A stretch of 60,331 bases of DNA, from the IMG/VR virus record IMGVR_UViG_3300025120_000050, positions 1 through 60,331 of that record. One strand, written 5' to 3'. Origin of the DNA: a virus. Taxonomy: Duplodnaviria; Caudoviricetes. The notes beneath the pieces are model-generated. The model was not told the origin of the DNA, did not search any database, and saw nothing but the letters and a program-made list of their open reading frames with translations. Position numbers and translations under genes: made by a program. This document shows positions 2,774 through 39,501 of the stretch, piece after piece (within the stretch, counting starts at the first letter, position 1; each line of letters begins with the position of its first letter).

Positions 2774-4345
2774 TCAGCAATTCCAAGCTCTTAATGATTT
2801 ATTGATTCTGCTATCTGGATCATTAGCAGTTTTAGCAGAAGTTAGTTTTTTCTTCATGCCTTTCATTCTTGCACAGAATGAAGATCTTCTTTTATTTCCA
2901 ACTTTTTTGGATGGTGATTTTAAATCACTTCCTGGATTATCACGTTCATATGATTTTCTACCTTTTTCATTCAAACCCCCTTCAGGGTTTTTTCCAGACT
3001 TTTTTGTCCATGCTGCTGCCTCATCAACTTCAACTTTTTTTTTATTTGTAAGTTGTGCCTTGCGACCAGCAGGATTCTGCATAGCAATTCTGCGTTGCAT
3101 CTGCTTATTAGTTTCTTTTTCATCACCAACAGAGACAGCTCTCTGCTCTTTACCATATGCTTTATTAGACTGACGTGCCATCTTTTCTTTAGGAAGCACT
3201 TTATAACCTTCTTCTACTTCAGAATCTACATCAACATTTTCAACTTCTTCATATACTCCAGCATTTACAAACTGCTCACCTGGTTGAAAAGGAGATAAAT
3301 TATAATTTCTTATAGTAGAACCAGGATAGATTTTTTGAATGGCATCCTGAACTTCATCTCTCTTTGGTTTTCTAATTTCAGGGAAGAATAATTTTATCAT
3401 ATAAGTTTTTGCTCTCCATGAGAAAACAACACTATAAACATTTCCAGTTTGAGCAGGAATCCTTACAGATTCATCAATTTTCTCAGATGGGCATTCCTTC
3501 ATACCATGAATAGGGCACTCCTCATCTTTATGATTGTGAACACATTTTTTCTTTTCATCCAAATATTCTACTTCTTCTTTAGTTGCTGTCTTCCAACTAC
3601 CACCTGCTGCTTTATACTTCTTAGCAGCCCAACCATTAGCATATGCTGATGGATATACATCAAATTTTGCCTTTGCTTGTGATTTAAACTTAGACCACAA
3701 TGCAGGTTTAGTAGGAACATTCTTTTCTACAAGAATCCACTCATTTTCACATTCAATTTTTTCAAGAATTGCTTTTACCATAGGAGTATGTTCTTCCTTT
3801 GCATTCTTAGGAACACAATTAGGAACCATCTTACCACCTTTCTTCTTCATCCCAACTTGTTTATGGGAGTCCCAGCAAGGATCACCCTTACCCTCATCCA
3901 TGTGATCAGCAGACTTGTAACGCTTGTCACCTGCCTTCATCTTTTGATATGCAAGAGTATTTGCTTTCTTGTCAGCATTTGTGACAACCATACGATTGTC
4001 TTTTGGTGCTTCCTTCTTAGCAGGAGTTCCACCATATACTGCTTCATCAACAATCTCTTCTTTGATTTTATTTGAAGTCATGATTGGTTTTCCTCCTTTA
4101 CCTGGTCTGTCTGCAACTGGATCTTGTCTTCTTTTTCTTTTTACAGCAGAAGCTCTTTCTGCTTTAGACATTTTTGATGCTTTTTCATTAGAAAGACATT
4201 TAGGTTTTCCTTCACCCTCACCTCTAGCACATTTACCAATTCTTTCACCTTTTGTATTATAACGATCCCATCCACCACCTCCTTTACCACCTTCAGGTCC
4301 TGAACCAAACCATTTTCTTAGATCTTCTTTTTGAATATCTGACAT
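2774..4345 (-). CDS. Modular basic protein, candidate internal head polyprotein
   Basis: Series of Lys/Gly-rich modules separated by acidic linkers ending in hydrophobic-x-E. ATG at 4345 preferred over TTG at 4351. Late-promoter-like CTAAATA upstream. Confidence 0.8.
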   Translation of the reverse strand: MSDIQKEDLRKWFGSGPEGGKGGGGWDRYNTKGERIGKCARGEGEGKPKCLSNEKASKMSKAERASAVKRKRRQDPVADRPGKGGKPIMTSNKIKEEIVDEAVYGGTPAKKEAPKDNRMVVTNADKKANTLAYQKMKAGDKRYKSADHMDEGKGDPCWDSHKQVGMKKKGGKMVPNCVPKNAKEEHTPMVKAILEKIECENEWILVEKNVPTKPALWSKFKSQAKAKFDVYPSAYANGWAAKKYKAAGGSWKTATKEEVEYLDEKKKCVHNHKDEECPIHGMKECPSEKIDESVRIPAQTGNVYSVVFSWRAKTYMIKLFFPEIRKPKRDEVQDAIQKIYPGSTIRNYNLSPFQPGEQFVNAGVYEEVENVDVDSEVEEGYKVLPKEKMARQSNKAYGKEQRAVSVGDEKETNKQMQRRIAMQNPAGRKAQLTNKKKVEVDEAAAWTKKSGKNPEGGLNEKGRKSYERDNPGSDLKSPSKKVGNKRRSSFCARMKGMKKKLTSAKTANDPDSRINKSLRAWNC

Positions 4346-21243: not shown

Positions 21244-24200
21244 TTATACTGAATATGCTTTAAACTTCAGTGGATTGAATCTTCTGACTAAAGAAGATGT
21301 TGAAATACCAGTATCAGAATAAGCAGAACCTATACCTGACAGTGTGTGAGCAGGGAATGATTTAGGTTTAGTTCTATCGTCAAAGGTAATTTTACCCCAA
21401 CTATAATTACCAATTTCATGACCTGAAGTACTTCCAATTCCAACAGGAATTCTATCAACATTTACAGTAAGTGTTCTTACTGAAGTAGTGACTCCAGAGG
21501 TATCTTCAACATATACAGTGATATTTCTATCTATAAACGATTTTACTTGATAAACACAATCAAGAGCAGTTGTTCCAACCCCCACTGTAGTGCCCCCAGA
21601 AGAGTCCTGAGCAGCAAAAGTAGAACCAACTGATAGGCTTGTACCATTTAGAACAAAATAATCACCTGTAGATATTCCACTAACTGTAACACCAGATCCA
21701 ACATTTGTGTCTCTCATAAATGAATATCTTGGAATATAAGTATCAAATTGTATAGTATTCTGAGATCCAGATTTAGCAGTTAATATTCCAACAATAACAC
21801 CATAATCACCTTTATACTCAGTGATATTAATTTTTTCACGTATTAATGGTGGTGACTCAATAAGAACAGATGGAGGATTAGTAGAAGTATATGCTAATCC
21901 AGTTGTTGTACCACCATACGAAACAGTTACAGAGGTCACTGTGCCTGCAGCACTAATTAATGAAGTTGCTTCTGCTCTGCCAGTTGTTCCTCCAAATCCA
22001 GCTGGATTTGATACAAATACAGATGGTGCTACAGTATATCCAGCTCCAGGATTAGTAATGCTAAATGATATAATTGTACCAGCAGTTCCTACAACTGCTG
22101 TTGCAGCAGCTCCAGTTAATGTCTTCTGATCATTAATTTCAATGATTTTTTGATGCTTATTTCTAACACTAGTATTTCCTATTTCATTTTTTGGATTAAA
22201 TGCTGGAACTAAATTATTTACATAACATTCTGTTGATCCAACACCTACAGATGTAATCAAATAAGATGATGGTCTACTAAGTGGTTCATATATTTCTCTA
22301 TCTTTTCCAATTTTTTTGGAATTGATAACTAAATCTTTAGTTTGCTTACACCAAGTAACTGGTCTTTGTAAGAGAGTATCACTTGTTATTCCTGGTCCAT
22401 TATAAAGAGTTGTTTGAACACTATCTACTGTATTGATTCCAGTAACTATTCTTTCTTCTTGATCTAAGAAGTATGATTGACCAGATCTTGGGTTATAATT
22501 AATATCAAGTGAATCACCTGGTTTAACAGTTTGTAAAACATCTCTAAAGACAACATCAATATCATCTCCAGTTCCTTTATAGTAAATGACCTTTACAGTA
22601 TCACCTACTTTAGGTGCTTCAGCAAATTCAACTATACTTCCACCATTAAAAATGAATGCAGATCCAGGTTTTTGGAGAACATCATTAATGAATATGATTA
22701 AAGTTTGTTCAACATCAATTAATGAACCTTTAGCAGACACAATTGAAATTGCTTCTTCATTAACTGTCAATCTAAAGGATCTTTCTTCTCCATTAAACTC
22801 ACTAGCAAATGAATCAAATATTTGGAACTGACCAAGTGACCATCCATTAAAATTATCTGTATATACATCTTGAATAGTAAGTGTGAAATCCTCAAATGTT
22901 AGAGATGTGTTTGTAGGAATTCCTGTAGTTCCACCTGTGGGGATAGTTAAAATTTCATTATTTCCATATGCATAACCATAACTATTAATTTTGAAGTCAA
23001 TTACACTAGAACCCTGTCCAACAACAATATCAACAGTAGCACTTCTACCAACTCCTGCTAACGATGAAGAATGATATTCAAGGGGAATATTTTCATATGA
23101 TAGAGGAGAATCAAATAAAATTAGTGGTGGATCTGAAGTTGTGAATCCTGTTCCTGGATTTGTAATTGCTACACTAACAATATTTCCATTACTAATATTT
23201 GCTGTTCCCAAAGTTTGAATAGGTGGATAACCCTCAGATAAAGCAACAGATACATTAACAGTAGTTTGAATACCTGATCTATAACCAGATCCACTATTGC
23301 CAATACTGACTGATGAAATTGTTCCTAATCCAGAAATAATACCTGTACCACCAGCAGAAACTAATGGTTGATATGCAAAACCAGCAGTATTCCCAACAGA
23401 AACAATAACACCACCTGTGGGTAAATTGCCTTTGGATGGATCATATCCTTCTGGTTGAATCAAACCACTAAATGTAATTGTTGAGATACCAGCATCCTCA
23501 ATAATTGTATAATTGTTTAATTCAGGTTGTTCTCCTCTTGGTAGTTGGAATATTCCATTTATCAATACAATTCCATTCCCAGTTGAAATTCCTGTTACAT
23601 TACTTGATTGTGATTTCAATATAAAATCACTCTTAATACCAGTAAATTGTGTTGATATATCGTCAAATATGTAATTTGTGGAGTAAGTTTCAGCAGATGT
23701 TTTTTGAGCAACATTCCTCATGAATGTTCTTCCGTGGAAACTAGATCTTGTAGTGATGCCACTAAAATCTCTAGAATCTGGAGGATTAGTAATACTGCCA
23801 ATAGGAACATTACCAAATGGTGCTGCAGCAAAACTTATTATATTACCAGCAATATTAAAATTACCTATCAATTTTGTAATGGTTGATCCAATTCCATGCT
23901 GAACTAATGTTGTTCCAAGTTGCTCTCTCAAAACACCAATTGCATTATCATTTCCAACTCCAATATCAGTTACTTTCATTATTTCATCATTAATTTGAAC
24001 TAAATCACCAGCAAAGAATGAAGTTATTCCAATTGTTGTAAATCTTGTATCAAAAATAATAGATGATGCTAGAGCTGTAGTGACAGATGATCCAACCACA
24101 GGAGATTGAATCATGTTATCAATAGTGAGAAGAGTTTTTGTATTTTGATTCTTTGCTGTGAATACATGAGAATCTCCATATCCAACATTTGTAAAATCAA

Positions 24201-27200
24201 ATGTCTCTGGATTAATTAAAAGTGATTTTTCTGCTGTTGCTGCGAATCTTAAAGATCCATCATCAACTTTAACAGCAAAAAGTTTTGTAGGTAATTTATC
24301 TGTAAGACCAATTCCAGGAACAGTAGCAGATGTGATTCCTATAGATTGTGATGTACCTGCACCTGAATTACTGTAAACTAATTCTTCACCAGTAACAAAG
24401 AAGTGTTCAGGTATTTTGACCAAATCAAGAGAGGTATTTGCAATTGATGGATTGCTACCATCAATAACTCTTCTAAAAATTTGCTTACCTTCATGAAGCA
24501 AATTAAAGTCCTTTGTAATATCAAGTTTTGTTCCTCTGTAAGAACCATTATCACTATTAACTTTCCAATTAAAATAATCTATTTGAGTTGTATTGGTATT
24601 ATCATCATAAGTTTGAAGATCAATTGCATAAGTTCTAACTTGAACATTAATGCTTGGTTTTGCTTTATAGGTTATACTTAAATCAGTTCCATTTTCTGAT
24701 ATGTTAACTTCACCTATAGTGCTACCTGTTGAGACATTTGCATACTCAACAAATTCTGCAGAAGTTTCTAATCCTTGTCTCAATACTCCCAATTCAAATG
24801 ATTCATAGACATTATTTGTTGAGTTAGTGACATTAATAAAATAATAACCACTATCGTAAGGTTCTGAAAGTGTGGCTACTGTAGTAAACCCTGGAGTTGA
24901 TGAAGAAGAGATACTTTTATAAGTTGATCTAAATCTACCAACATCTAGTGCAACTGTTCCAATACCAGTTTCAGAGGCACTTATAGCAGTGATTTGAGCA
25001 TTTGCAGTTAAGGCAGTAGTATTTGCATCAGGAATAAAATCAATTTTTACATTATTACCAGATAGATATGAATTGTAAGTTCCAAAACCTGTGAATGTGG
25101 CATTAGAATTATCTCCAATTCCACCATACTCTAAAAGGTGTACAGTGGTTCCATCATGAAGGAAGGTAAGTTCATTACCAAGATAGTTATCATTACTATC
25201 TTCCAACATTAAAAGAACTTTTCCTGACCTATAACTTGTTGCAATAGAAACAATATTTGTTGTGGTTCCCACTGAAACTGTATTTTGCTGACTAGATGTA
25301 CTTACAGCAGTGCCAACTGCTGTAATTGATCCAACTCCAGTATAATCATCAATTGCAGCAATATTGATAATAGAAGTATCATAATTGTTAACTTCAAATT
25401 TATTTGGATTAAATGTTAAATCCCATCCAGAAGATGTTACACGATAACTATAATGACCTAAATCTAATTTAGAATCTAGAATAGCATATTCATCCAAGTA
25501 TCCAAAATTATCATCTTGAGCTAAAGATAATATTGAAAACTGTCTTTCATCAGTAAACGTTCTATCTTTTACATATGCAAATATTTTATTATATTTCATA
25601 TTACTGGTGAAATCACCAATAGAACTAAATGAATCTGGTCTTTCATTACTATTGAATGAAGAACTAAAATCATCTATTGATAAGACTCTATTTCCAACAG
25701 ACTCAAAATAATCAGATAATATAGAACTTTCAAATAAGATTTCATTTGAATATAAACCACCATTTATAAATTCATGAGTCTCTCTCACATAATCAAAATT
25801 ATAAACACAATTTAAATCTACTAATGTTTGGATGTCAACAATAGTTTCGATATTTGAGTCTGAAGTTTGTAAAATATTTTGTGTTACATCATCTAATATA
25901 CTTACAATTTGAAGATCTCCAAATTTAACAAAACCAGCAGTATGATTTAAGGCATTAACAGCAGGATTCCATGTGTCAAAGGGAATCTTAGATTTAACAG
26001 CATATGAGAAATTTTGATAATATTCATTATTTGGAATTTTTTGGAAACTATCATTTAAGAATCCAACATCATCTTTCCATCCATTATAAACTGTAGCTCC
26101 TGCTCCAGTTTTTGATTCTGCATTAAAGTTAATTTTTCTGGATACAATTCCTTGAGTTTTTGAACTATTGCCTTGAATTAGATCTCCAACTTTTATTTCA
26201 TTGCTGGTTGAAATTTTAAGAATTTCTATATTTGAATTCCAAGAAAGAACTTTTCCTTCAACTCCACCACTTGTACACATTTCACCTTTTGAAAATTCAT
26301 TAGGAGAGAATTTTACATCAAACAGAGGGAAATGATCTTCTGGAATAACTCTACCCAAACTTGGTAAAAGTGCTACTCCTGGATTTTCAGTTATAGAAAG
26401 ATAATTTTCCAAAGAATATTCAATGTAACCACCAGGTCCACCAAGTTGAGGTACAGAATTTGTAACTTCAAATAAAGCAAAGTTAAAATCTGAAGAATTA
26501 TATCCTCTACCTGTTGTATTGAATCCCAGATTTATATTTTCAACTAATATTTTTTTACCAACAGCAAATGGGTAATCAGATGCATCACTAAATGTTGTAT
26601 TAAAGTGCAATCTTACTATTTGTAATGTTGAATTATAAGTTACTGAAGAAATTCCAACACCATTAGTATTATTTGTTGGAATCAGTGTTGGTTTTGTATT
26701 GTAAATTCCTGTTGTATTTTTAACAATTGATACACTGGTATCACCAATATCATATTGAAGATCTACATCATCTATAACTTTTTGAGTAAATCCATCAATT
26801 ACAATAAGTTTTGGAGCTTTTAAATAATTTTTACCACTTGATGTAATACCAATAAAATCAAAAGATGATAAAGGTTCAATTTTTAAAATTTCAGGTAAAT
26901 TTACTATAGGTCTTAATGTAATATCAGAGGGATAACCAAATCCAATATTATTAGTGTCAAAAGTATATGATAAAATTTCACCTATACTTTTACTTTGAGG
27001 TTCTAAAATTGCACCAGATCCCATATGAGATGTGATTGATGAAATTCCAGGTACTAATTCGTAAGAGGATCCTGTATTGAATACTTGAATACTTTCTATA
27101 ACCCCATATGCTGTTTTGGAGTCTGTAGTATATGAAATTGAAGCATTATTTACATTATAATTTTCATTTTCAGGTTTTTCTGGAATAGAAAATGTAAATG

Positions 27201-30200
27201 TAGTGGTTCCAATTCCAGAAATAGTTTTTAAACCATAAAAAATACTGTTAACAAGGTCAATTTGATTATTTGAAAATACATTTACATCACTAACTATTTC
27301 TGACTTAACTGCAGGCAATATTTCTTGATTATCACCAACAAATCTATACCAAAGATTTGATTTTTTAAATGAATCATTAAAATCAATTATTAAACTTGCA
27401 TCTGTGCTTACACCTATTGTGCCAGTTTTAACAACTTCAAAAATTTCATCCTCTCCAGATGTTAAAAATTCATTTGTATAGTTTAAATCACTATAAATCT
27501 TCAAATCAAAGGCAGAATAACTAACACCAGAATTAATAAATCCCAAACTTGAATCACTTAAATCAAATTTAAGTTTTTGGTTTTTTAATACACTAACATA
27601 TGGATTAATTCTAGATACAGTTCCTGCATTTGCTGATGAGAATTTAACAAAGTTTTTATTGCTAACATCTATTTTTTCACTACAAAGTTTAATCTTATCT
27701 TCACCATATATAACAACATAATACATTTTTTGATCAATTAAACCACTAATTACAGTAGATGCATTATAAACTATTTTATCTCCTGTATTGAATTTATGAT
27801 TGATAATTTTAATAGTATTTTCAACTACATTAACATCATTTGATGTAAATGTTTTTGGATCAAAAACAACTCTTCTATTATAATCGTTATATCTAACATC
27901 AATGGTTTTTGTTGATTTTGGTTTTAAATCAAAAAATACTTTATTGTTATTCTCCAATCCATGAGTAGAGGCTGTTGATACAGTAACTGTGTGAATTCCA
28001 ATCTTTCCTGTTACAACATCAGTTTTTACAGTTTTGAAACTATGGAAATCACCAGTACCAAAACCAGGGAAGAAAAGTAACCCTGTTGATGTTCCCAATC
28101 CAGAATATCCACCACCTGTACTAGCAAGTCCAACTTTATTTGTTGCTATTCCAATTAAATTGTTTGTTATAGGGGCAACATACAAAATACTATAATCAGA
28201 GAGTAAATTATACGTATCTGTAGTACCATTCCATGTGGATACTGCAGTTCCTGTAAAATTATTATAAGATACTATATCATTTAAGTTAAGTTTATGATTT
28301 GGTAGATATATTTGTTGCGATTGTAATGTTACTGCAGTTACACCAATAGCAGGATTTTTAAAGGTAATAGTTGTAGCAGTGCCCACTGCTGTGCCTACAC
28401 CAATTGCCTCTTCAGGTTCAAAATAAATTTCTTCATTTAAATTAAATGTGGTTGTAGATTTTATTGACCCAACATTAAAAGTAAATTTTCTTGGATCTTC
28501 TACTATTGAAGTAAGAGTAGAGTAAGATGTTCCTACAGTGCCATCTTGTTCTCTTACTACTCTAATTCTTCCACTTAAACTATCAATATTAAGAACTTTA
28601 ATTCTTTCTGCACTGATCTGTAATATATCATTAGGTCTGATTGTTGGATAATCTAAAATTCCAGTGACATAGAAATACGTTGTTAATCCTGTAACTGAAG
28701 TATTACCCACACCTAAGTTTAAATTGAAACTGTCAGTTCTTACTCCGATAAAATAATTACCACCAAATCCTGGTAAAGTCTTTGAAATAGATCCAACATT
28801 TACTAATGTACCACTCTTTAAATTATGAGGAACTGTTGAGAATCCAATAAATCTTGATTCGTTAATTCCTTCTAATGCAAATTCAACATCTATTTCTGTG
28901 CTAGATGTTGCTGCTGAAACAACTGCTTTACCTTTTACATTTTTAATTTTTGCATTAGCACCCAATCCACCAGAATTTTTATTATCAAAATTAATTTTAT
29001 CACCAACTTGATAATTATCTCCACCACTAAGTATTTTAATTGATTCAACACCACCAATACTTGCAGAACCTATAATAAATGATTGTTTTTTAAGATTATT
29101 TGAGTCAAAGATATAATCATAACCACTATATTTTGAAACAAAATTGTATGGATTTGTGTTTCTAAAATATCCTGTTCCAGCAAAATTAAAATCTTTTTGA
29201 TTTGAACTTTTTCTGTAGTTAAATGTATTTGGTTGTGAATTAAATGTATTACCTACAATGTAAGGGAATTTAGGTGCTTTAAACTTATTAAATAAACCAA
29301 ATGAACTATTGACTGATTCAATTGTGGCAAAATATGCATAACTGCCAAAAGGAAAATCTGGTGTTACAGAATATCTTCCATTATGCTCATCTAAATCCCC
29401 ATTACCATTAAATTCAAAATCTTCAACAAAAAACCCTTCAGGATAGAAAGACAAAGATGGTCTATTGTTTGATGTTATATTGAGTTTATATCCAGATTCA
29501 ATTAATTTAACTGAACCACCATCTGAGTTTTCATATCCATATGGGCCATATATTGGGTGTCCATCATATGCCCAACCAATTATGGGTGAATGATATTTAC
29601 TATTCAATTCACTTTTATTAACAGGATCAAGTTCTAAATCATCTACTCCATATAGAACTTCAAAATCTGAAATAGGATTAAGTTTTCTTCTTAATTCTCT
29701 TGGAGCATATAGATGTGAATATTGTAGAGACTCATTGTTAAAACTATTACAAATTACACCATCATCTTCACCAATAATATCTATTGATTTTTCAAATAAA
29801 TTAACAGTCCACTGATGAATATTAATATCCAATCTCTCTGCAGTGACTGGTGATTCAATAGTCAGTGATGATTTATTATCAAAACCTACTCCACCATTTA
29901 TTACTTTTATTTCTACTAACTTATTATCTCTTACAATTGGTGTAAGTTTAGCAAATTGACCATTACCATTTATTTTAATATTTGGAGGGCAATTATAATC
30001 TTTACCACCATCATTAACAATTACAGAAACAATTCTACCATTATTGATAATGGGGGTGACTTGAGCACCAGACCCTGATTTAAGTTCAATTTCTGGTGTT
30101 CTATTAAAATTAATAATTTCAGGTGATCCATAATTTGAACCACCATTGATAACTTCTATGAAATCAATACTACCTCTAAAGACAGGTTGAATTTTAGCAT

Positions 30201-33200
30201 TAAAATCTTGTCCAGAGAGTGTTGAAATTCCCAACACACCATTAATAGAAACAGAAATTGGTTCATAATTAAAAGTACCATTTCCTGTAGATCCCAGTGA
30301 CACATAAACATTATTATTTAAAAAATAATTTATTGTAGATCCTGTACCAATTTGAGATAAATTGAATCTATCATTATCAATTTTTTGAACATAGTAATCT
30401 GTATTGGAAACAATTCCTGAAATATTGACAGTGCTTGGAGAGTATCTTATTTTTTCGCCAGTTTGATATCCATGTTTTTCAATAAAAATAGTATTTGTGG
30501 ATGTTGTAACACCTGCTATATTTCTTTCTTTATTTTTATATCCTTCACCTGGATTTAAAATATGACATTTTGAAACAATTTTTTTCTTATCAAAAGATTG
30601 AATTGTTTGCAAACCAGTTCCATAATCAGTTATAGTTAGAGTATTAATACCAATTCTTGCATTTGATGAAGTTGAGTGCAGTCTTATATTTTTATCATCA
30701 ACAACTTCAACAAAATAATGATTAAAAGTTGATATGCCAGATATATTTCTACCACCATTTGTGAGGTAGATAATTTTTTCACCTGTATAAAATTTATGAG
30801 ATGTTGAGAATCCAATTCTGTGTGCAGATGATCCAACACCTATTGTAATTGATGTAGTTAAACCTGATGATGATTCTGATAAGAAGTTCACACCATGAAC
30901 AAGATCAATAGTTTCAACTTGAACCTGTGCAGGAACAACTGGATTTCCTCCAGTGATGGTTACAATTGGATCCTGAACATAATCAAATCCAGTGTCAGAA
31001 ATTCTTATTTCTTCTAATCTTCCAATCACTGCAGATTTTGCAGTAGCACCAACTCCAACACCATCACTTATATGAACAACTGGGGGATTGATAATATCAA
31101 ACCCATCACCTCTATCTACAACATCTATGGATTTTATATCACCAAAATATACAATATCATCAGATTTATAATTTAATATTTCAACTCCATTATTAAACAT
31201 ACCAATTTTTCCAGAGTATGTATCATAACCATCTTTGTTTTTGATTGGAGTTTTTACTTCTCTATAAATTTCTTGAGGAGAAACTTTTTTATTGTAGAAA
31301 GGTTGATATGTAAATTTATTATTTGTTACTGTACCTCCTGGAGAAATAAACTTATTATCAAAAAGATCAGATTTACTTCTAGCAATTTTGAAAGATCTAG
31401 AATTATCTCTTCCAATTCTTTTTACAAAGTAAACTCCTTCATCAATATTAGAAAATTTAGTTACTCTATCCTCATATTGTTGAACACCATTAAGAACAAA
31501 TGTTTCTATTCTTTCAAGAGTTGGAGAATAATAAACAGCATCACCAGTGTAGAGACCATGCTCTGATGAAAAAGTAAATGTATCTCCGCTTACATTTGAA
31601 CTTGAAAATATGATAACCTTATCATTTGTTTCAATTAAATCATTATTTCCATAAGTGGGAAAAGAATTTGATGAGAGGATAGTATCACCATTAAATTTTT
31701 GATAGGAATTTACAATATTTGTAAATGATTGATTTATTTCAGGATGGTTTTTGTAATTACCTTTTAGAATTTTATTTCTTGCAACCAATTCACCAGAAAA
31801 ACTATCAGGAATAGAACTTAATAAAATCTCAAATCTATCGCTACCAAGATTTTTTAAAACATTACCTTCAGTAATAACTTCTGAATCCCTTAAAATTTCT
31901 AGGGAATATCCTCTTTTTAAATAAGTATCATCAAAAGTTGTAATTATATACTTTCTTTCTGAAATATCAATCTCTTCAACATTTTGTATTCTCCATTTAA
32001 ATTTAAGATTATTAATTAAATTATTAACAGGTAAACTATTACCATCAATACCCAGTGACTGAAGTTCAGCTACATCATCTTTATTAAAATAATAAGTTGA
32101 ATCATCTATAATAAGATCAGTAAGTGTAGTAGAAATTCTAAATCTTATGTCATCATTAATAGTTGATGCATAATCATCAAAGAAAACACTAGTTGTATCT
32201 GCTATATTTGTTGTTATTCCTGTAATATCTAAAAATTGATTATCATTTTTACTTCCATATGTAAAATCAAACTCCTCATTACCAACATTAAAGGATATTA
32301 ATTCTCCACTATTTGGGAAACCAATAGTTGAATCTACATCAATTGTAGTCTGACCAACTGAAACATTGTTTAAAACTTTAGTTGATGGTATTGATTCAAA
32401 TGTTCCAAAAATTGATCCATCTAAATTAATATCTCTCTGGTATCCTATGTCTATGCTTATTTGAAGATACTGATCGTTATTATAAATTACTTTCTGTACA
32501 TTAGTAACTGTCCCCTTTGCTCCAGTTCTTAATTGTTGAATTGTTCTATTTTTTAATTCAAATGGATCACCTAGTATTGGTTCAATTACAAAATCTTTTG
32601 TTACACTATAATCAGCAGTTGATGGTTTAATTAAAAATTCACTTGGTTTGACTATATTTACTTCATCACCATATAGTGCTTGAAAAAGAATTTTTAAAGC
32701 TCTATCAGTCCCTTTTGCATCATAAAAACTTTTTGCGCCAAAAATAAAGTTTCTTTGATCCAATCCAGAAAATAAATCTCTACCAGAAAAACCTGGAACA
32801 AATTGATTTTTTACTTTATTAAAAAATTCTTCTAAGAAAAGAACGCTTAAATTTTCAATTTTAGAACCAGCAGCATGAGTTGCTGAAAAACTATTTTCAA
32901 AAACTAATTCATCTGGTTTATTGGGAGAAGTATAAGATACTATTCCACTAAATCCTCTTACACAATCAGTAAATGTTGTTTGTGTCTTTTTACCATAAAA
33001 TATAATCTCGTTATCAATTTTAATTAATCCATTCCTTTCAGGAAAACCATACGTAAAATTAGTATCTAGTTCAGTGGTGATTGTATCATCAACAAATGAA
33101 ATTGTGCTGGCCAAACCTGTTGAGGTTTTGATATCATATAAATTATCAACTTTTACATATTGATCAATATTGTTTAAAATATTTAAAGATCCACCATTAT

Positions 33201-33318
33201 TTTCAACAGACAGATAATATTGTTCTAAAAATTTTCCCAACAAAGGAAAATCATCCTGAATGTACCCAGGAAGCTGGTCTGATACAATGTCTTGTACTTG
33301 TACTCTATCTGTGTTCAT
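21244..33318 (-). CDS. gp7: Baseplate wedge initiator (gp7-like), 4024 aa
   Basis: QLPGYI..FLEQYY, FYDAKGT..LFQALYG, HSPIIGWAYDGHPIYGPYG, YYQNFSY..HTAGF; lies between gp6 and gp8. Confidence 0.88.
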   Translation of the reverse strand: MNTDRVQVQDIVSDQLPGYIQDDFPLLGKFLEQYYLSVENNGGSLNILNNIDQYVKVDNLYDIKTSTGLASTISFVDDTITTELDTNFTYGFPERNGLIKIDNEIIFYGKKTQTTFTDCVRGFSGIVSYTSPNKPDELVFENSFSATHAAGSKIENLSVLFLEEFFNKVKNQFVPGFSGRDLFSGLDQRNFIFGAKSFYDAKGTDRALKILFQALYGDEVNIVKPSEFLIKPSTADYSVTKDFVIEPILGDPFELKNRTIQQLRTGAKGTVTNVQKVIYNNDQYLQISIDIGYQRDINLDGSIFGTFESIPSTKVLNNVSVGQTTIDVDSTIGFPNSGELISFNVGNEEFDFTYGSKNDNQFLDITGITTNIADTTSVFFDDYASTINDDIRFRISTTLTDLIIDDSTYYFNKDDVAELQSLGIDGNSLPVNNLINNLKFKWRIQNVEEIDISERKYIITTFDDTYLKRGYSLEILRDSEVITEGNVLKNLGSDRFEILLSSIPDSFSGELVARNKILKGNYKNHPEINQSFTNIVNSYQKFNGDTILSSNSFPTYGNNDLIETNDKVIIFSSSNVSGDTFTFSSEHGLYTGDAVYYSPTLERIETFVLNGVQQYEDRVTKFSNIDEGVYFVKRIGRDNSRSFKIARSKSDLFDNKFISPGGTVTNNKFTYQPFYNKKVSPQEIYREVKTPIKNKDGYDTYSGKIGMFNNGVEILNYKSDDIVYFGDIKSIDVVDRGDGFDIINPPVVHISDGVGVGATAKSAVIGRLEEIRISDTGFDYVQDPIVTITGGNPVVPAQVQVETIDLVHGVNFLSESSSGLTTSITIGVGSSAHRIGFSTSHKFYTGEKIIYLTNGGRNISGISTFNHYFVEVVDDKNIRLHSTSSNARIGINTLTITDYGTGLQTIQSFDKKKIVSKCHILNPGEGYKNKERNIAGVTTSTNTIFIEKHGYQTGEKIRYSPSTVNISGIVSNTDYYVQKIDNDRFNLSQIGTGSTINYFLNNNVYVSLGSTGNGTFNYEPISVSINGVLGISTLSGQDFNAKIQPVFRGSIDFIEVINGGSNYGSPEIINFNRTPEIELKSGSGAQVTPIINNGRIVSVIVNDGGKDYNCPPNIKINGNGQFAKLTPIVRDNKLVEIKVINGGVGFDNKSSLTIESPVTAERLDINIHQWTVNLFEKSIDIIGEDDGVICNSFNNESLQYSHLYAPRELRRKLNPISDFEVLYGVDDLELDPVNKSELNSKYHSPIIGWAYDGHPIYGPYGYENSDGGSVKLIESGYKLNITSNNRPSLSFYPEGFFVEDFEFNGNGDLDEHNGRYSVTPDFPFGSYAYFATIESVNSSFGLFNKFKAPKFPYIVGNTFNSQPNTFNYRKSSNQKDFNFAGTGYFRNTNPYNFVSKYSGYDYIFDSNNLKKQSFIIGSASIGGVESIKILSGGDNYQVGDKINFDNKNSGGLGANAKIKNVKGKAVVSAATSSTEIDVEFALEGINESRFIGFSTVPHNLKSGTLVNVGSISKTLPGFGGNYFIGVRTDSFNLNLGVGNTSVTGLTTYFYVTGILDYPTIRPNDILQISAERIKVLNIDSLSGRIRVVREQDGTVGTSYSTLTSIVEDPRKFTFNVGSIKSTTTFNLNEEIYFEPEEAIGVGTAVGTATTITFKNPAIGVTAVTLQSQQIYLPNHKLNLNDIVSYNNFTGTAVSTWNGTTDTYNLLSDYSILYVAPITNNLIGIATNKVGLASTGGGYSGLGTSTGLLFFPGFGTGDFHSFKTVKTDVVTGKIGIHTVTVSTASTHGLENNNKVFFDLKPKSTKTIDVRYNDYNRRVVFDPKTFTSNDVNVVENTIKIINHKFNTGDKIVYNASTVISGLIDQKMYYVVIYGEDKIKLCSEKIDVSNKNFVKFSSANAGTVSRINPYVSVLKNQKLKFDLSDSSLGFINSGVSYSAFDLKIYSDLNYTNEFLTSGEDEIFEVVKTGTIGVSTDASLIIDFNDSFKKSNLWYRFVGDNQEILPAVKSEIVSDVNVFSNNQIDLVNSIFYGLKTISGIGTTTFTFSIPEKPENENYNVNNASISYTTDSKTAYGVIESIQVFNTGSSYELVPGISSITSHMGSGAILEPQSKSIGEILSYTFDTNNIGFGYPSDITLRPIVNLPEILKIEPLSSFDFIGITSSGKNYLKAPKLIVIDGFTQKVIDDVDLQYDIGDTSVSIVKNTTGIYNTKPTLIPTNNTNGVGISSVTYNSTLQIVRLHFNTTFSDASDYPFAVGKKILVENINLGFNTTGRGYNSSDFNFALFEVTNSVPQLGGPGGYIEYSLENYLSITENPGVALLPSLGRVIPEDHFPLFDVKFSPNEFSKGEMCTSGGVEGKVLSWNSNIEILKISTSNEIKVGDLIQGNSSKTQGIVSRKINFNAESKTGAGATVYNGWKDDVGFLNDSFQKIPNNEYYQNFSYAVKSKIPFDTWNPAVNALNHTAGFVKFGDLQIVSILDDVTQNILQTSDSNIETIVDIQTLVDLNCVYNFDYVRETHEFINGGLYSNEILFESSILSDYFESVGNRVLSIDDFSSSFNSNERPDSFSSIGDFTSNMKYNKIFAYVKDRTFTDERQFSILSLAQDDNFGYLDEYAILDSKLDLGHYSYRVTSSGWDLTFNPNKFEVNNYDTSIINIAAIDDYTGVGSITAVGTAVSTSSQQNTVSVGTTTNIVSIATSYRSGKVLLMLEDSNDNYLGNELTFLHDGTTVHLLEYGGIGDNSNATFTGFGTYNSYLSGNNVKIDFIPDANTTALTANAQITAISASETGIGTVALDVGRFRSTYKSISSSSTPGFTTVATLSEPYDSGYYFINVTNSTNNVYESFELGVLRQGLETSAEFVEYANVSTGSTIGEVNISENGTDLSITYKAKPSINVQVRTYAIDLQTYDDNTNTTQIDYFNWKVNSDNGSYRGTKLDITKDFNLLHEGKQIFRRVIDGSNPSIANTSLDLVKIPEHFFVTGEELVYSNSGAGTSQSIGITSATVPGIGLTDKLPTKLFAVKVDDGSLRFAATAEKSLLINPETFDFTNVGYGDSHVFTAKNQNTKTLLTIDNMIQSPVVGSSVTTALASSIIFDTRFTTIGITSFFAGDLVQINDEIMKVTDIGVGNDNAIGVLREQLGTTLVQHGIGSTITKLIGNFNIAGNIISFAAAPFGNVPIGSITNPPDSRDFSGITTRSSFHGRTFMRNVAQKTSAETYSTNYIFDDISTQFTGIKSDFILKSQSSNVTGISTGNGIVLINGIFQLPRGEQPELNNYTIIEDAGISTITFSGLIQPEGYDPSKGNLPTGGVIVSVGNTAGFAYQPLVSAGGTGIISGLGTISSVSIGNSGSGYRSGIQTTVNVSVALSEGYPPIQTLGTANISNGNIVSVAITNPGTGFTTSDPPLILFDSPLSYENIPLEYHSSSLAGVGRSATVDIVVGQGSSVIDFKINSYGYAYGNNEILTIPTGGTTGIPTNTSLTFEDFTLTIQDVYTDNFNGWSLGQFQIFDSFASEFNGEERSFRLTVNEEAISIVSAKGSLIDVEQTLIIFINDVLQKPGSAFIFNGGSIVEFAEAPKVGDTVKVIYYKGTGDDIDVVFRDVLQTVKPGDSLDINYNPRSGQSYFLDQEERIVTGINTVDSVQTTLYNGPGITSDTLLQRPVTWCKQTKDLVINSKKIGKDREIYEPLSRPSSYLITSVGVGSTECYVNNLVPAFNPKNEIGNTSVRNKHQKIIEINDQKTLTGAAATAVVGTAGTIISFSITNPGAGYTVAPSVFVSNPAGFGGTTGRAEATSLISAAGTVTSVTVSYGGTTTGLAYTSTNPPSVLIESPPLIREKINITEYKGDYGVIVGILTAKSGSQNTIQFDTYIPRYSFMRDTNVGSGVTVSGISTGDYFVLNGTSLSVGSTFAAQDSSGGTTVGVGTTALDCVYQVKSFIDRNITVYVEDTSGVTTSVRTLTVNVDRIPVGIGSTSGHEIGNYSWGKITFDDRTKPKSFPAHTLSGIGSAYSDTGISTSSLVRRFNPLKFKAYSV

Positions 33319-37101: not shown

Positions 37102-37887
37102 TCAAATAACTCTGTTCTTCTCATGACCAACTCTGATACGTGGATCACACCAAATATCAAATCCTGCCTCAATTGCATCTAAACAGAATGAGACATCCTC
37201 CCCACACATGTCCTGGACTGCACCAGATTCAAATACTTGCATCTTGGGGGCAAACCATGGGTATTTCATCTCCTCATGCTCAAAGACTCCCTTCTGAATC
37301 ATTACCCATCCAAATCCTGTGTAGTCAACAGTAAATGGTTTCTTACGCTTACTGATGCCATCTACCATCTCATGATTCATTACACCACCATTGTTTCGGA
37401 AATCATCCTCATCCAACCAGTGTGCTACTGATGTTGTACGTCCATCTTCTGTACTATACCATCCTGCAACAATCTCCTTATTCTCTCCTTCTGCTGGTAC
37501 TGCCATGTCACATAGCTGCCAGAACTTGTCTGTATTAAACACAATATCACTATCAATCCATAACTGATAGTCATACTCTAACTTACCATCCCATGGCACC
37601 TGATCTGGTCCACGCAATACATTAGCACCTAAACACTTACATCTTGCAAAGTTTACCATGGATGAGTAATCTTGACTGATCTGAATACTCATTCCATTTT
37701 GTACAATATCAAAACACAATTGTACAAAATTCTTCAGAAAGACATATGAGACACCACGTCCTGGTAAGCAAAATACAATGGTCTTTCCTCTCATCCTTTC
37801 TTTGATTGCCTGGAAATCCCACTCTGGGGGTTTCTCCTTAGTACTACTCACAGGCGTCTTCGCCTTTACAGTAAATCCTTTTGCCAT
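37102..37887 (-). CDS. GT-A fold glycosyltransferase-like protein
   Basis: DYQLWIDSDIVF (DxD), VDYTGFGWVMI, GEDVSFC, D..I.VGH.K motifs. Confidence 0.8.
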   Translation of the reverse strand: MAKGFTVKAKTPVSSTKEKPPEWDFQAIKERMRGKTIVFCLPGRGVSYVFLKNFVQLCFDIVQNGMSIQISQDYSSMVNFARCKCLGANVLRGPDQVPWDGKLEYDYQLWIDSDIVFNTDKFWQLCDMAVPAEGENKEIVAGWYSTEDGRTTSVAHWLDEDDFRNNGGVMNHEMVDGISKRKKPFTVDYTGFGWVMIQKGVFEHEEMKYPWFAPKMQVFESGAVQDMCGEDVSFCLDAIEAGFDIWCDPRIRVGHEKNRVI

Positions 37888-37910
37888 GATTGATAATTCA
37901 CTACAACTTC

Positions 37911-37939
37911 AGTTTAACAGTATATCTATGTCTTGTCAA
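37911..37939 (-). promoter_or_regulatory. Sigma70-type promoter for the glycosyltransferase
   Basis: TTGACA (37939-37934), 17 nt, TGtTAAACT (-10 at 37916-37911). Confidence 0.75.
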
Positions 37940-38142
37940 TAAGACGACTCATCAATTTCATGGGTGGTTTTCTCCACCTTTTCATATGAAAGATCTTCTT
38001 CCTCATAATTAGTGGTCATCAATCCTACCATCGCTTTCATTGAATTCCAGTGTATCTCAAATTGATTCTCTGTTAAACAATTATATACACATTTGTCCTT
38101 CAAGTATATGTGGTAAAAATTTTCAGCAGAAATTTTTTTCAT
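37936..38142 (-). CDS. Hypothetical protein
   Basis: 68-aa ORF on the coding strand (YHIYLKDKC..L.E..F..W..DLSYE). Confidence 0.7.
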   Translation of the reverse strand: MKKISAENFYHIYLKDKCVYNCLTENQFEIHWNSMKAMVGLMTTNYEEEDLSYEKVEKTTHEIDESSY

Positions 38143-38305
38143 TAAATGGATTTTCTTTTTGAATTATATATCATCCTCATATTGACTTAGAGGGTATATA
38201 CTTTTGTAGGTTAGGGTTCCTACCCTTTTTTCGTAGGGGGGGTCGCTACGCCCTTTGGGCCACATACACATACCCTCAGAAACACTGTCTGATTCACAAT
38301 ACTGT

Positions 38306-38334
38306 ATTCTATCACATGTACTGCTAAGTGTCAA
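38306..38334 (-). promoter_or_regulatory. Sigma70-type promoter P1 (minus)
   Basis: TTGACA, 17 nt, TGaTAGAAT. Confidence 0.8.
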
Positions 38335-38366
38335 CCAGGAGGCACACAGTGGGCATCAGATAGGGG

Positions 38367-38395
38367 TTGCAGTTACTCATGATGTGTGTTAGAAT
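38367..38395 (+). promoter_or_regulatory. Sigma70-type promoter P2 (plus), divergent from P1
   Basis: TTGCAG, 17 nt, TGtTAGAAT. Confidence 0.6.
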
Positions 38396-38459
38396 AAAAT
38401 GAAAAAAGTACTTATAAAATCTATGTGGGACAAATAGATTTCTATGTGGGACACATGGA

Positions 38460-38642
38460 CTATGGAATCTGTTCTAAACCAGTGATAACCTTCTGCTGTA
38501 TTTGTCCCACATAGGTTATTCCATGTGTCCCACATAACCTCTCATATTCTTTGAGCATTTGGGACACATGAGCAACACAGGAGGATGGAACTCTGATTCT
38601 CTCAGTATGTCCCAGGTTTGGCAATTTCTTGGAGAATGGCAT
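38460..38642 (-). CDS. 60-aa putative DNA-binding (ribbon-helix-helix-like) protein
   Basis: MPFSKKLPNLGHTERIRVP beta-strand-like motif followed by two helices; own promoter P3 upstream. Confidence 0.55.
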   Translation of the reverse strand: MPFSKKLPNLGHTERIRVPSSCVAHVSQMLKEYERLCGTHGITYVGQIQQKVITGLEQIP

Positions 38643-38691
38643 AAGTCATGTGGGACACATAGGATTTGCATGATTTTCATTTGTCCCACAT

Positions 38692-38720
38692 AGATTAGCA
38701 CAGGTTTCGTAGGTTGTCAA
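38692..38720 (-). promoter_or_regulatory. Sigma70-type promoter P3 (minus), drives the 60-aa ORF
   Basis: TTGACA, 17 nt, TGcTAATCT. Confidence 0.7.
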
Positions 38721-38766
38721 CTATGTGTCCCATATAAAATCTATGTGTCCCATATGAATTTGGGTG

Positions 38767-38795
38767 TTGACATGTGAGATAAAGTGTGATATACT
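38767..38795 (+). promoter_or_regulatory. Sigma70-type promoter P4 (plus), divergent from P3
   Basis: TTGACA, 17 nt, TGaTATACT (near-perfect consensus). Confidence 0.8.
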
Positions 38796-38933
38796 GCTGC
38801 CTTAGATCACTAAAAGATCTAAGGTTTAAACAGGTTTATAACAATCTATTTGGGACAAATAAAACACTAATATACATTTAAAAAGACATTTATTAATGAA
38901 TTTCTATTTGTCCCACATAGAAAAGTATCATTA

Positions 38934-39134
38934 TTAGGTATTAAGTTGATCCCAAGTCATAGAACCATAGAGATCAATTACCTCTTCTTTTATATCAATC
39001 TCTTCCCAATCTTTGATGTTTTGTGTGATACCATCAACAGCAATATTAACCAGGGTATCCATATCCATACTATCTACAATCATCTCTGCATAACGTTGCT
39101 TTAGGAGATCAAGTTTAGAGTCAGAGGTAATCAT
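38934..39134 (-). CDS. Hypothetical early protein
   Basis: YAEMIVDSMDMDTL acidic helical small protein; ATGA overlap with the upstream gene. Confidence 0.75.
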   Translation of the reverse strand: MITSDSKLDLLKQRYAEMIVDSMDMDTLVNIAVDGITQNIKDWEEIDIKEEVIDLYGSMTWDQLNT

Positions 39135-39277
39135 TGGATTTCAGAAGATGGTGGTTGAAGTAATCTTTCTATAGTGTTATTCCTCTCTTGAATTGTTTCC
39201 ATTAGATTTGAATCTAATAGTTCAATGAGTAGATTAGCACTAAGAAGTACAAATAAAGAGATTAGAACAAGTCTCAT
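39131..39277 (-). CDS. Small membrane-anchored protein (48 aa)
   Basis: Manual: MRLVLISLFVLLSANLLIELLDSNLMETIQERNNTIERLLQPPSSEIQ. Confidence 0.65.
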   Translation of the reverse strand: MRLVLISLFVLLSANLLIELLDSNLMETIQERNNTIERLLQPPSSEIQ

Positions 39278-39289
39278 ACTGTGTGTTAC

Positions 39290-39403
39290 TTAAGGTTTAA
39301 AGAACTTAGAGAGTTTAAGTAATGAATTACTGATAAGTGTTCTAACCTTATTACTATTCCAACAAACATAAATGATGAATAGGAGGAAGAGAAGACTACA
39401 CAT
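39290..39403 (-). CDS. Small hydrophobic protein (37 aa)
   Basis: Manual: MCSLLFLLFIIYVCWNSNKVRTLISNSLLKLSKFFKP; fills the gap in the operon. Confidence 0.5.
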   Translation of the reverse strand: MCSLLFLLFIIYVCWNSNKVRTLISNSLLKLSKFFKP

Positions 39404-39408
39404 AATAA

Positions 39409-39501
39409 TCAATAGAGTGCTTCAATTGCTTCAAGGATGAGTAGAATATCATTACCATTCTCTGCATTTTCAAGAGCAATAAAGAGATCAGACTTAGACA
39501 T
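39409..39501 (-). CDS. Small protein (30 aa)
   Basis: Manual: MSKSDLFIALENAENGNDILLILEAIEALY. Confidence 0.55.
   Translation of the reverse strand: MSKSDLFIALENAENGNDILLILEAIEALY

Follow-up and report, generated by a model that had tools for sequence, protein, structure and literature searches.

T4-like cyanophages are among the most abundant of marine viruses, and we know of neither a phage-encoded early repressor nor a mapped replication origin in this group. In phage P22, the Arc and Mnt proteins (~50-80 amino acids) read the major groove with a β-ribbon made from two chains and so switch early promoters, and in the ParG/parH and R1 ParR/parC systems a ribbon-helix-helix protein sits on an array of degenerate boxes around its own promoter.

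Three further systems resemble the locus described below. Omega (ω2) of pSM19035 is a 71 amino acid protein with an unstructured N-terminal arm that forms a ribbon-helix-helix dimer, and that binds, and represses through, 6-10 short repeats, direct or inverted, embedded in promoters including its own (PMC4627068). In the plant TCP domain (AtTCP15, AtTCP10), two chains form a ribbon-helix-helix-like dimer; its R-I-R or R-V-R strands contact GGNCC or GTCCC at the centre of the site, and the class II site, GTGG-TCC-CCAC, is a palindrome apart from its central TCC (PMC9841405). T4 oriE combines a cluster of repeats with dependence on an early promoter, according to a T4 review (PMC3016281).

We analysed 60,331 bases from a T4-like cyanomyovirus, hereafter the window, a fragment that CheckV rates as 28% complete; its nearest isolates are 76-81% identical to it over parts of the region. 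The initial annotation had counted about 12 motif copies in some 500 bp, and a whole-window search for ATNTGGGACANAT with at most one mismatch bears this out: there are 13 matches, of which 11 are exact and all lie within 38423-38918, and a degenerate twelfth copy at 38605-38617 was found via the core TGGGACA. The only two one-mismatch matches lie at 29539 and 48157, leaving 0 exact copies outside the array, in agreement with the earlier observation that the window holds no comparable cluster elsewhere. Shuffled sequences gave a mean of 2.37 matches and a maximum of 7, with 13 reached in 0 of 100. The core itself occurs 14 times in the window, where 6.97 are expected, and 12 of the 14 occurrences are within 38426-38915. 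By strand, there are 5 forward and 6 reverse exact copies in the record against 0 and 0 in the backwards control, a count that covers the 60-kb record (28% of a genome).

On the plus strand, five copies read GGGAC (38423, 38444, 38557, 38648, 38848) and seven read GTCCC (38500, 38523, 38605, 38679, 38723, 38743, 38906), precisely the division described earlier. The centre-to-centre gaps are, in order, 21, 56, 23, 34, 48, 43, 31, 44, 20, 105 and 58 bp; eight of the 11 fall no more than a quarter turn from whole helical turns, and the gaps of 21, 23 and 20 bp are the three pairs, 20-23 bp apart, that had already been noticed, as had the longer outer dyads, which are indeed present in the sequence. 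Pooling 39 distinct instances from close relatives gives a site of ~17 bp, T-ATGTG-GGA-CA(C/A)AT-AG, and arm position 3/11 is unpaired in seven of 11 window copies. What the initial annotation missed is that four copies lie inside a 60 amino acid gene and that the remaining copies lie on or beside promoters. The features of 38143-38939 are listed here.

38143-38300, minus strand: highly conserved leader, preceding a 68-aa gene at 37936-38142
38306-38334, minus strand: promoter TTGACA-17-TAGAAT, 11/12 match, serving the next minus-strand block
38423-38435, plus strand: copy 1, ATGTGGGACAAAT, downstream of the small gene's stop
38444-38456, plus strand: copy 2, ATGTGGGACACAT, 4 nt past the small gene's stop codon
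38460-38642, minus strand: 60-aa gene P0001 (MPFSKKLPNLGHTERIRVP...), of an unannotated family; proposed motif binder
38500-38512, minus strand: copy 3, within the 60-aa gene, codons YVGQI
38523-38535, minus strand: copy 4, within the 60-aa gene, codons LCGTH
38557-38569, plus strand: copy 5, within the 60-aa gene, codons HVSQM
38605-38617, minus strand: copy 6, degenerate (core TGGGACA only), within the 60-aa gene, codons LGHTE
38648-38660, plus strand: copy 7, ending 5 nt before the gene's ATG, a position kept in the family
38679-38691, minus strand: copy 8, directly downstream of the small gene's proposed -10
38694-38722, minus strand: proposed small-gene promoter TTGACA-17-TAATCT, placed by eye, with a 3/6 match at its -10
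38723-38735, minus strand: copy 9, abutting the small gene's -35
38743-38755, minus strand: copy 10, 11 nt ahead of the outward plus-strand promoter's -35
38767-38795, plus strand: outward promoter TTGACA-17-TATACT, 11/12 match with TG extension, against gene flow and kept in relatives L032, L054 and L056
38820-38939, no strand: AT-rich tract of 120 bp, GC 0.21, downstream of the outward promoter
38848-38860, plus strand: copy 11, in the AT-rich tract
38906-38918, minus strand: copy 12, lying 15 nt below the stop codon at 38934 that ends the upstream 66-aa gene

A promoter scan lists two sigma70-type promoters that match at 11 of 12 positions, at 38767-38795 (plus) and 38334-38306 (minus), in a region where promoter-like sites (7, against 6.8 in shuffles) are not above shuffles. 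The proposed promoter of the small gene is missing from the scan because its -10 matches at only 3 of 6 positions; in relatives the small-gene promoter reads TTGACA-17-TAGACT, or TTGAC(C/T) followed by the palindrome and TATAAT. When the window is aligned with L032, L054 and L056 (75-83% identical to it), the motif copies and three promoters are kept while the spacers drift. No ORF lies behind the outward promoter, and the AT-rich tract, which holds copies 11 and 12, is kept alongside that promoter in the same three relatives. Just after the outward promoter's start there is a 9-bp hairpin (CCTTAGATC...GATCTAAGG, window 38806-38830) with two GATC sites, which is not conserved in L054.

On one side the array is flanked by small genes of PHROG families with unknown function and on the other by a block leading to baseplate genes; within the window this block comprises the 68-aa gene, a glycosyltransferase-like gene and a ferredoxin-labelled gene, and the isolates have annotated baseplate wedge genes at their syntenic loci. 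All flanking genes are on one strand, with no switch of transcribed strand. The leader at 38143-38300 (minus strand) is better conserved than the coding DNA that surrounds it, is nearly identical in L032 and L054, and contains CGTAG-CGACCCCCCC-CTACG plus further hairpins. It folds, yet compensating changes are seen in 0 of 30 predicted pairs and it has no Rfam match; over 37500-39500 as a whole, Rfam returned miRNA noise only (E 0.1-0.6). Of four RNA-library runs, three yield short contigs of low depth that map to 38448-38769 and 38776-38925, and the fourth covers 37900-38128 only; these contigs carry no strand or start information, may stem from DNA carry-over and leave 38135-38447 uncovered, a signal too faint to draw on. 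Elsewhere in the window, downstream of a gp6-like gene, a single minus-strand ORF of 4024 amino acids (21244-33318) presumably encodes a giant structural protein.

The minus-strand ORF 38460-38642 encodes 60 residues, MPFSKKLPNLGHTERIRVPSSCVAHVSQMLKEYERLCGTHGITYVGQIQQKVITGLEQIP. Orthologues, collected as contigs via a two-copy DNA pattern and then via the protein, always have exactly 60 codons at 50-80% identity. Pairwise dN/dS in frame is 0.12-0.35, and pN/pS is 0.25-0.44 in frame but 0.95-6.0 in the two other frames. Because its length is fixed, its dN/dS low and its pN/pS frame-specific, the ORF is a real gene under purifying selection. The DNA of copy 4 is constrained beyond this: its 15 nt (codons 36-40, LCGTH) are invariant in eight distinct orthologues, all five third positions included, whereas other conserved codons (P2, K6, R35, L30, Q49, L56) vary synonymously, which shows selection on the DNA word itself. 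An operator within coding sequence would make a single stretch of DNA serve two purposes.

The gene belongs to a family of unannotated 54-60 amino acid proteins, found here in uncultured viral contigs only. Pfam (searched with three and then 22 members), PHROGs and NCBIfam give no match to it, and tblastn of the small protein against 50,697 phage isolate records, which we assume to include T4, gave nothing. A word-indexed protein search returned one cluster only, a 98% identical copy, and the ESM Atlas returned unnamed viral clusters only; no relative turned up in pattern scans over 185,579 species genomes, weak evidence of absence given that a single N-terminal peptide pattern was used. HMMER against 1.84 billion proteins, by contrast with the curated collections, gave 61 cluster representatives at E ≤0.001, 14 of them at E ≤1e-10, so this is a gene that annotation has missed. 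A protein search of IMG/VR gave 64 loci, many of them near-duplicates, most of which code for 54-aa forms (MPFTKKFPxSGETxHIRVP...); the contigs reach 284 kb. Across the family M1, P2, F3, K6, P8, G11, T13, R17, P19 and G38 are invariant; R17 is invariant in the 22-row alignment A3 and present in at least 90% of the 43-row alignment A4, and the 60-aa subgroup has R15-I16-R17 where the 54-aa subgroup has H-I-R. In the large contigs inspected the small gene comes after a 411-aa ORF, putatively the helicase annotated in S-RIM12.

Some relatives are longer. P0011 and P0025 naturally carry the domain twice, in tandem within a single chain, the N-terminal part of P0025 looking nuclease-like by eye (YYIGKG...NR), and P0033, P0038, P0040 and P0061 are long forms (165-237 aa) in which the domain is N-terminal to a conserved extension of unknown family. 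The long forms have no relative in species-representative genomes, and no Pfam domain is found in P0025, P0033, P0038 or P0061. An E1_dh piece in P0012 is probably a chimeric call and was discarded.

How closely the motif and the gene are associated can be judged from the IMG/VR loci. In 50 of the 64 loci an exact copy of the generalised motif lies no more than 45 nt before the ATG, and at more than 600 bp from the gene there are only two exact copies in 262,942 bp. Once duplicates are removed, 38 upstream sequences are left; the motif is present in 28 of them and in each case stops 5-8 nt short of the ATG. Of the 64 loci, 14 have no exact palindrome before the gene, and 13 have none even at one mismatch. 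On the coding strand the central triplet at this position is TCC in 14 sequences, GGA in six, TCA in five and TGA in three, so the orientation of the site flips between lineages at a fixed place. Covariation of the strand residues with the central triplet was not found, the same residues accompanying TCC and TCA centres.

Each of the 10 close loci carries 6-11 copies within and around the gene, and these loci represent two different gene neighbourhoods; the underlying two-copy DNA scan returned 53 loci, and the 44 with 0-1 copies of the 13-mer were left out. In L068-L072 it is the palindrome that fills the spacer separating TTGAC(C/T) from TATAAT, and another copy stands before the ATG (read in L068, L069, L071 and L072, the upstream 60 nt of L070 being identical to those of another locus). 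L066 and L067 have copies in or beside TTGACT...TATACT/TATAAT boxes, plus one before the ATG. An array is lacking in most relatives, which have just one palindrome ahead of the gene, and in the 54-aa subgroup the single copy lies between an ATAAAT-like box and the ATG. Five large relatives carry 2-4 motif sites per record, 15 matches in total against one in the backwards control. Site positions, which cover G001, G002 and G004 but not G003 and G005, amount to nine places: three are the gene's own operator, one per record, and five more lie 1.4-8.2 kb away, one of these five being listed on both strands. The extra sites in two of the three placed records, four in all, are between small genes.

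Other repeats accompany the gene in some relatives. Clusters of 3-4 perfect copies of TTTTCCACA, presumably the cyanobacterial DnaA box, lie near the homologous small gene in L086 (232-364), L088 (2688-2802), L068 (85-128) and L073 (4298-4339), and in L086 and L088 they replace the palindrome upstream of the gene. The 56-aa homologue in L095 is preceded, at 2650-2890, by the words TCGTTCT/TCGTTAT some 10 times, with three tandem 21-bp units among them. Motif pairs in L036, L034, L012, L019 and L041, records with no relative of the gene, were set aside as unrelated or incomplete.

To model the protein we used home-made alignments. The AF2 monomer (pLDDT 92.5) has an extended segment at residues 1-19 followed by helices at 20-40 and 42-57, and the model of the tandem homologue P0011 (pLDDT 72.8) shows a strand at 13-19 with helices at 20-39 and 43-56 and then, again, a strand at 77-83 with helices at 84-103 and 106-123. 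The homodimer model scored 0.82 against 0.00 for the best control, with at least 98% contact agreement among runs and partner pLDDT of at least 86; among proteins of solved structure, 20 of 30 one-chain pairs attained this mark, as did one of 23 single chains. The model supports pairing of the protein as a homodimer. Contacts with the least predicted error include 16-16, 17-15, 18-16 and 15-18, which would form an antiparallel ribbon of R15-I16-R17-V18 from both chains.

The models show the strand-helix-helix topology, ~45 residues long, of the ribbon-helix-helix (Arc/MetJ/CopG) fold, and a dimer made through an antiparallel two-stranded ribbon with alternating outward polar residues appears in the model only. 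None of the curated ribbon-helix-helix sequence models in Pfam match; RHH_1, detected in all 14 control genomes, has no match at E ≤1 in the six-frame translated window. Foldseek and VIA, run with both models, gave low, tied rows and no clear fold family. Since the architecture fits but sequence models and structure searches give no match, we liken the protein to the ribbon-helix-helix clan rather than placing it there: as modelled, it would work like a ribbon-helix-helix repressor, without being filed as a proven member.

Taken together, these results make it reasonably probable that the array is the 12-site operator set of an autoregulated, ribbon-helix-helix-like repressor that is encoded inside it and acts over divergent early promoters. 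Autoregulation usually shows itself in a site kept at a constant place ahead of the gene, as here in 28 of the 38 distinct upstream sequences, where it lies 5-8 nt from the ATG. The initial annotation had proposed a protein-bound array, and the part of that proposal that we favour is a regulatory hub, given that the motif is tied to a small DNA-binder-like gene over 64 loci and overlaps promoters; its suggestion of an origin found no support in the tests made here.

The switch would work as follows. The 60-aa product would dimerise via its two R15-I16-R17-V18 strands as one antiparallel ribbon, one dimer binding each site, with the ribbon reading the asymmetric centre GGGAC/GTCCC and the N-terminal arms reading the palindromic flanks ATGT/ACAT. 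Occupied copies 7-10 would cover the gene's own promoter and leader, and occupied copies 1-6 the coding sequence and 3' flank, so that protein on the -35/-10, leader and intragenic sites would repress the small gene's own transcription. Copies 10-12 flank the outward promoter on both sides, and copies 9-12 would control it; copies 1-2 may reach the downstream promoter through cooperative contacts. Early accumulation of the protein would then shut off its own and the divergent transcription, at a point that lies on the junction between a small early gene block and the block leading to baseplate genes. Judged by titles and the starts of abstracts, none of the papers that a literature search returned concerns a cyanophage ribbon-helix-helix protein of this kind, and searching for the site's four 10-letter words gave unrelated studies among the matches listed. 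The 60-aa protein and its 13-17-bp site form a concrete, testable pair and, if the pair holds, would offer a compact, orthogonal repressor-operator part for cyanobacterial work.

The initial annotation also named a replication origin, which we consider unlikely. On that account RNA from the outward promoter 38767-38795 would act within the AT-rich tract as a primer or R-loop, on the model of T4 oriF/oriG; the repeats would serve as iterons and the small protein would bind the origin, roles like those suggested for T4 oriE and RepEB. A strong promoter without an ORF does oppose the gene flow here and fires into 120 bp of GC 0.21 containing copies 11 and 12; both promoter and tract are kept in L032, L054 and L056, and perfect TTTTCCACA boxes, 3-4 of them, stand beside the homologous gene in L086, L088 and L068. 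The copies, however, are quasi-palindromes that face either way and are set unevenly, 20-105 bp apart, rather than direct repeats at even spacing, and the flanks are transcribed from one strand with no GC-skew turn at 38.5 kb. There are 0 TTTTCCACA boxes in the window, and no DnaA-box module lies near the homologue of the neighbour gene at 49.0-49.9 kb. Most relatives carry the single palindrome, and the syntenic array that was to be looked for in related isolates has no comparable counterpart in S-T4 or S-SKS1. The T4 review finds that oriE iterons have never been linked to origin activity (PMC3016281). An origin role would be compatible with autoregulation, and the two can coexist. Near the syntenic place in S-SKS1 (L129) we noted an intergenic pair, ATACGGGGGCATA and ATAAGGGGGCATA, 17 bp apart at 4107-4136, whose sequence is unrelated to the array.

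The small gene could also be merely the regulated target of palindromes bound by another factor, for example a host regulator or host DnaA, but we regard this as improbable. By eye TGTCCCACA and TTTTCCACA agree at seven of nine positions, and true TTTTCCACA clusters replace the palindrome beside the gene in L086 and L088. Both mismatches to the DnaA box, however, fall on T2 and T4, which are important for DnaA binding, and the motif accompanies the gene into different genomic contexts and distant phages while keeping its place 5-8 nt before the ATG. T4 uses autogenous translational operators, and a palindrome acting as a hairpin in leader RNA, as translational operator or 5' stabiliser with the other copies incidental, would suit the 54-aa subgroup, where the lone copy, placed between the ATAAAT-like box and the ATG, would come at the start of the mRNA. 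This we think highly improbable: the mismatch at arm position 3/11 goes uncompensated, there is no Rfam match, and copies lie in a promoter spacer and upstream of -35 boxes and occur in both orientations. Duplex DNA fits better than an RNA hairpin because the centre flips between lineages and arm position 3/11 is unpaired. The earlier suggestion of methylation-dependent control, in which the sites would be targets of a BsmFI-like, GGGAC-specific methyltransferase or restriction system, takes its appeal from a core that is the BsmFI word. It has next to no probability in our view, as the conservation spans 17 bp, far past the pentamer, and the window contains 30 GGGAC/GTCCC words, 12 of which belong to the array, where ~31 are expected, which means that the word is neither avoided nor enriched outside the array.

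At T4 oriE with its RepEA/RepEB genes, as at this locus, short repeats cluster next to an early-type promoter and very small genes, in both cases within a T4-like genome; an iteron origin of that type, in contrast to this array, would have evenly spaced direct repeats. What would correspond to an oriF/oriG-type R-loop, namely the promoter at 38767-38795 and the tract of GC 0.21 at 38820-38939, is seen at the level of sequence only. Unlike the ParG and ParR systems, the phage gene has no evident partner ATPase next to it, and a partition role in a T4-like phage is unlikely. Arc and Mnt are similar to the phage protein in size and in the predicted ribbon, with no detectable sequence or fold match between them; Arc has one 21-bp operator, in contrast to the 12-site array here.

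The TCP domain offers a weak likeness. The phage site ATGTG-TCC-CACAT has in common with the class II TCP site both the central pentamer GTCCC and the design of an asymmetric centre; against the 11-bp TCP sites GTGGGNCCCAC and GTGGTCCCCAC the pentamer is shared, and the arms are ATGTG/CACAT rather than GTGG/CCAC. In the protein, R-I-R-V-P fits the R-V-R/R-I-R of the TCP saddle strand, with H-I-R in the 54-aa subgroup. Searches of the PDB placed Arabidopsis TCP15 at E 0.12 (A3) and 0.55 (P0001), aligned as G..RIR.P..C.A.V.Q, and a C-terminal piece of SopB scored about equally; TCP is not listed in the A2 or A4 profile searches. The D-R-H loop and β1-β2 hairpin of TCP are absent from the phage model, where the sequence is L-G-H-T-E. 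We treat the likeness as a lead, and it may reflect convergent chemistry, arginines on guanines. That the family is a viral relative of the TCP domain by common descent, a minimal ribbon-helix-helix protein with an R-I-R ribbon on GGGAC/GTCCC that doubles as origin and switch binder, seems to us very doubtful. To our knowledge, the TCP DNA-binding domain is regarded as plant-specific, and such kinship, if true, would point to the source of a plant transcription-factor fold.

Omega of pSM19035 differs from the phage protein in sequence, with no match between the two, and the phage gene has no partition ATPase nearby and belongs to a lytic-type T4-like phage. The Omega heptads are 7 bp long and contiguous, whereas the phage sites are quasi-palindromes of 13-17 bp, 20-105 bp apart, several of them intragenic. 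What the two systems would share is a small protein with an arm and a ribbon-helix-helix-like dimer (predicted for the phage protein), and a series of repeats placed in promoters that include its own.
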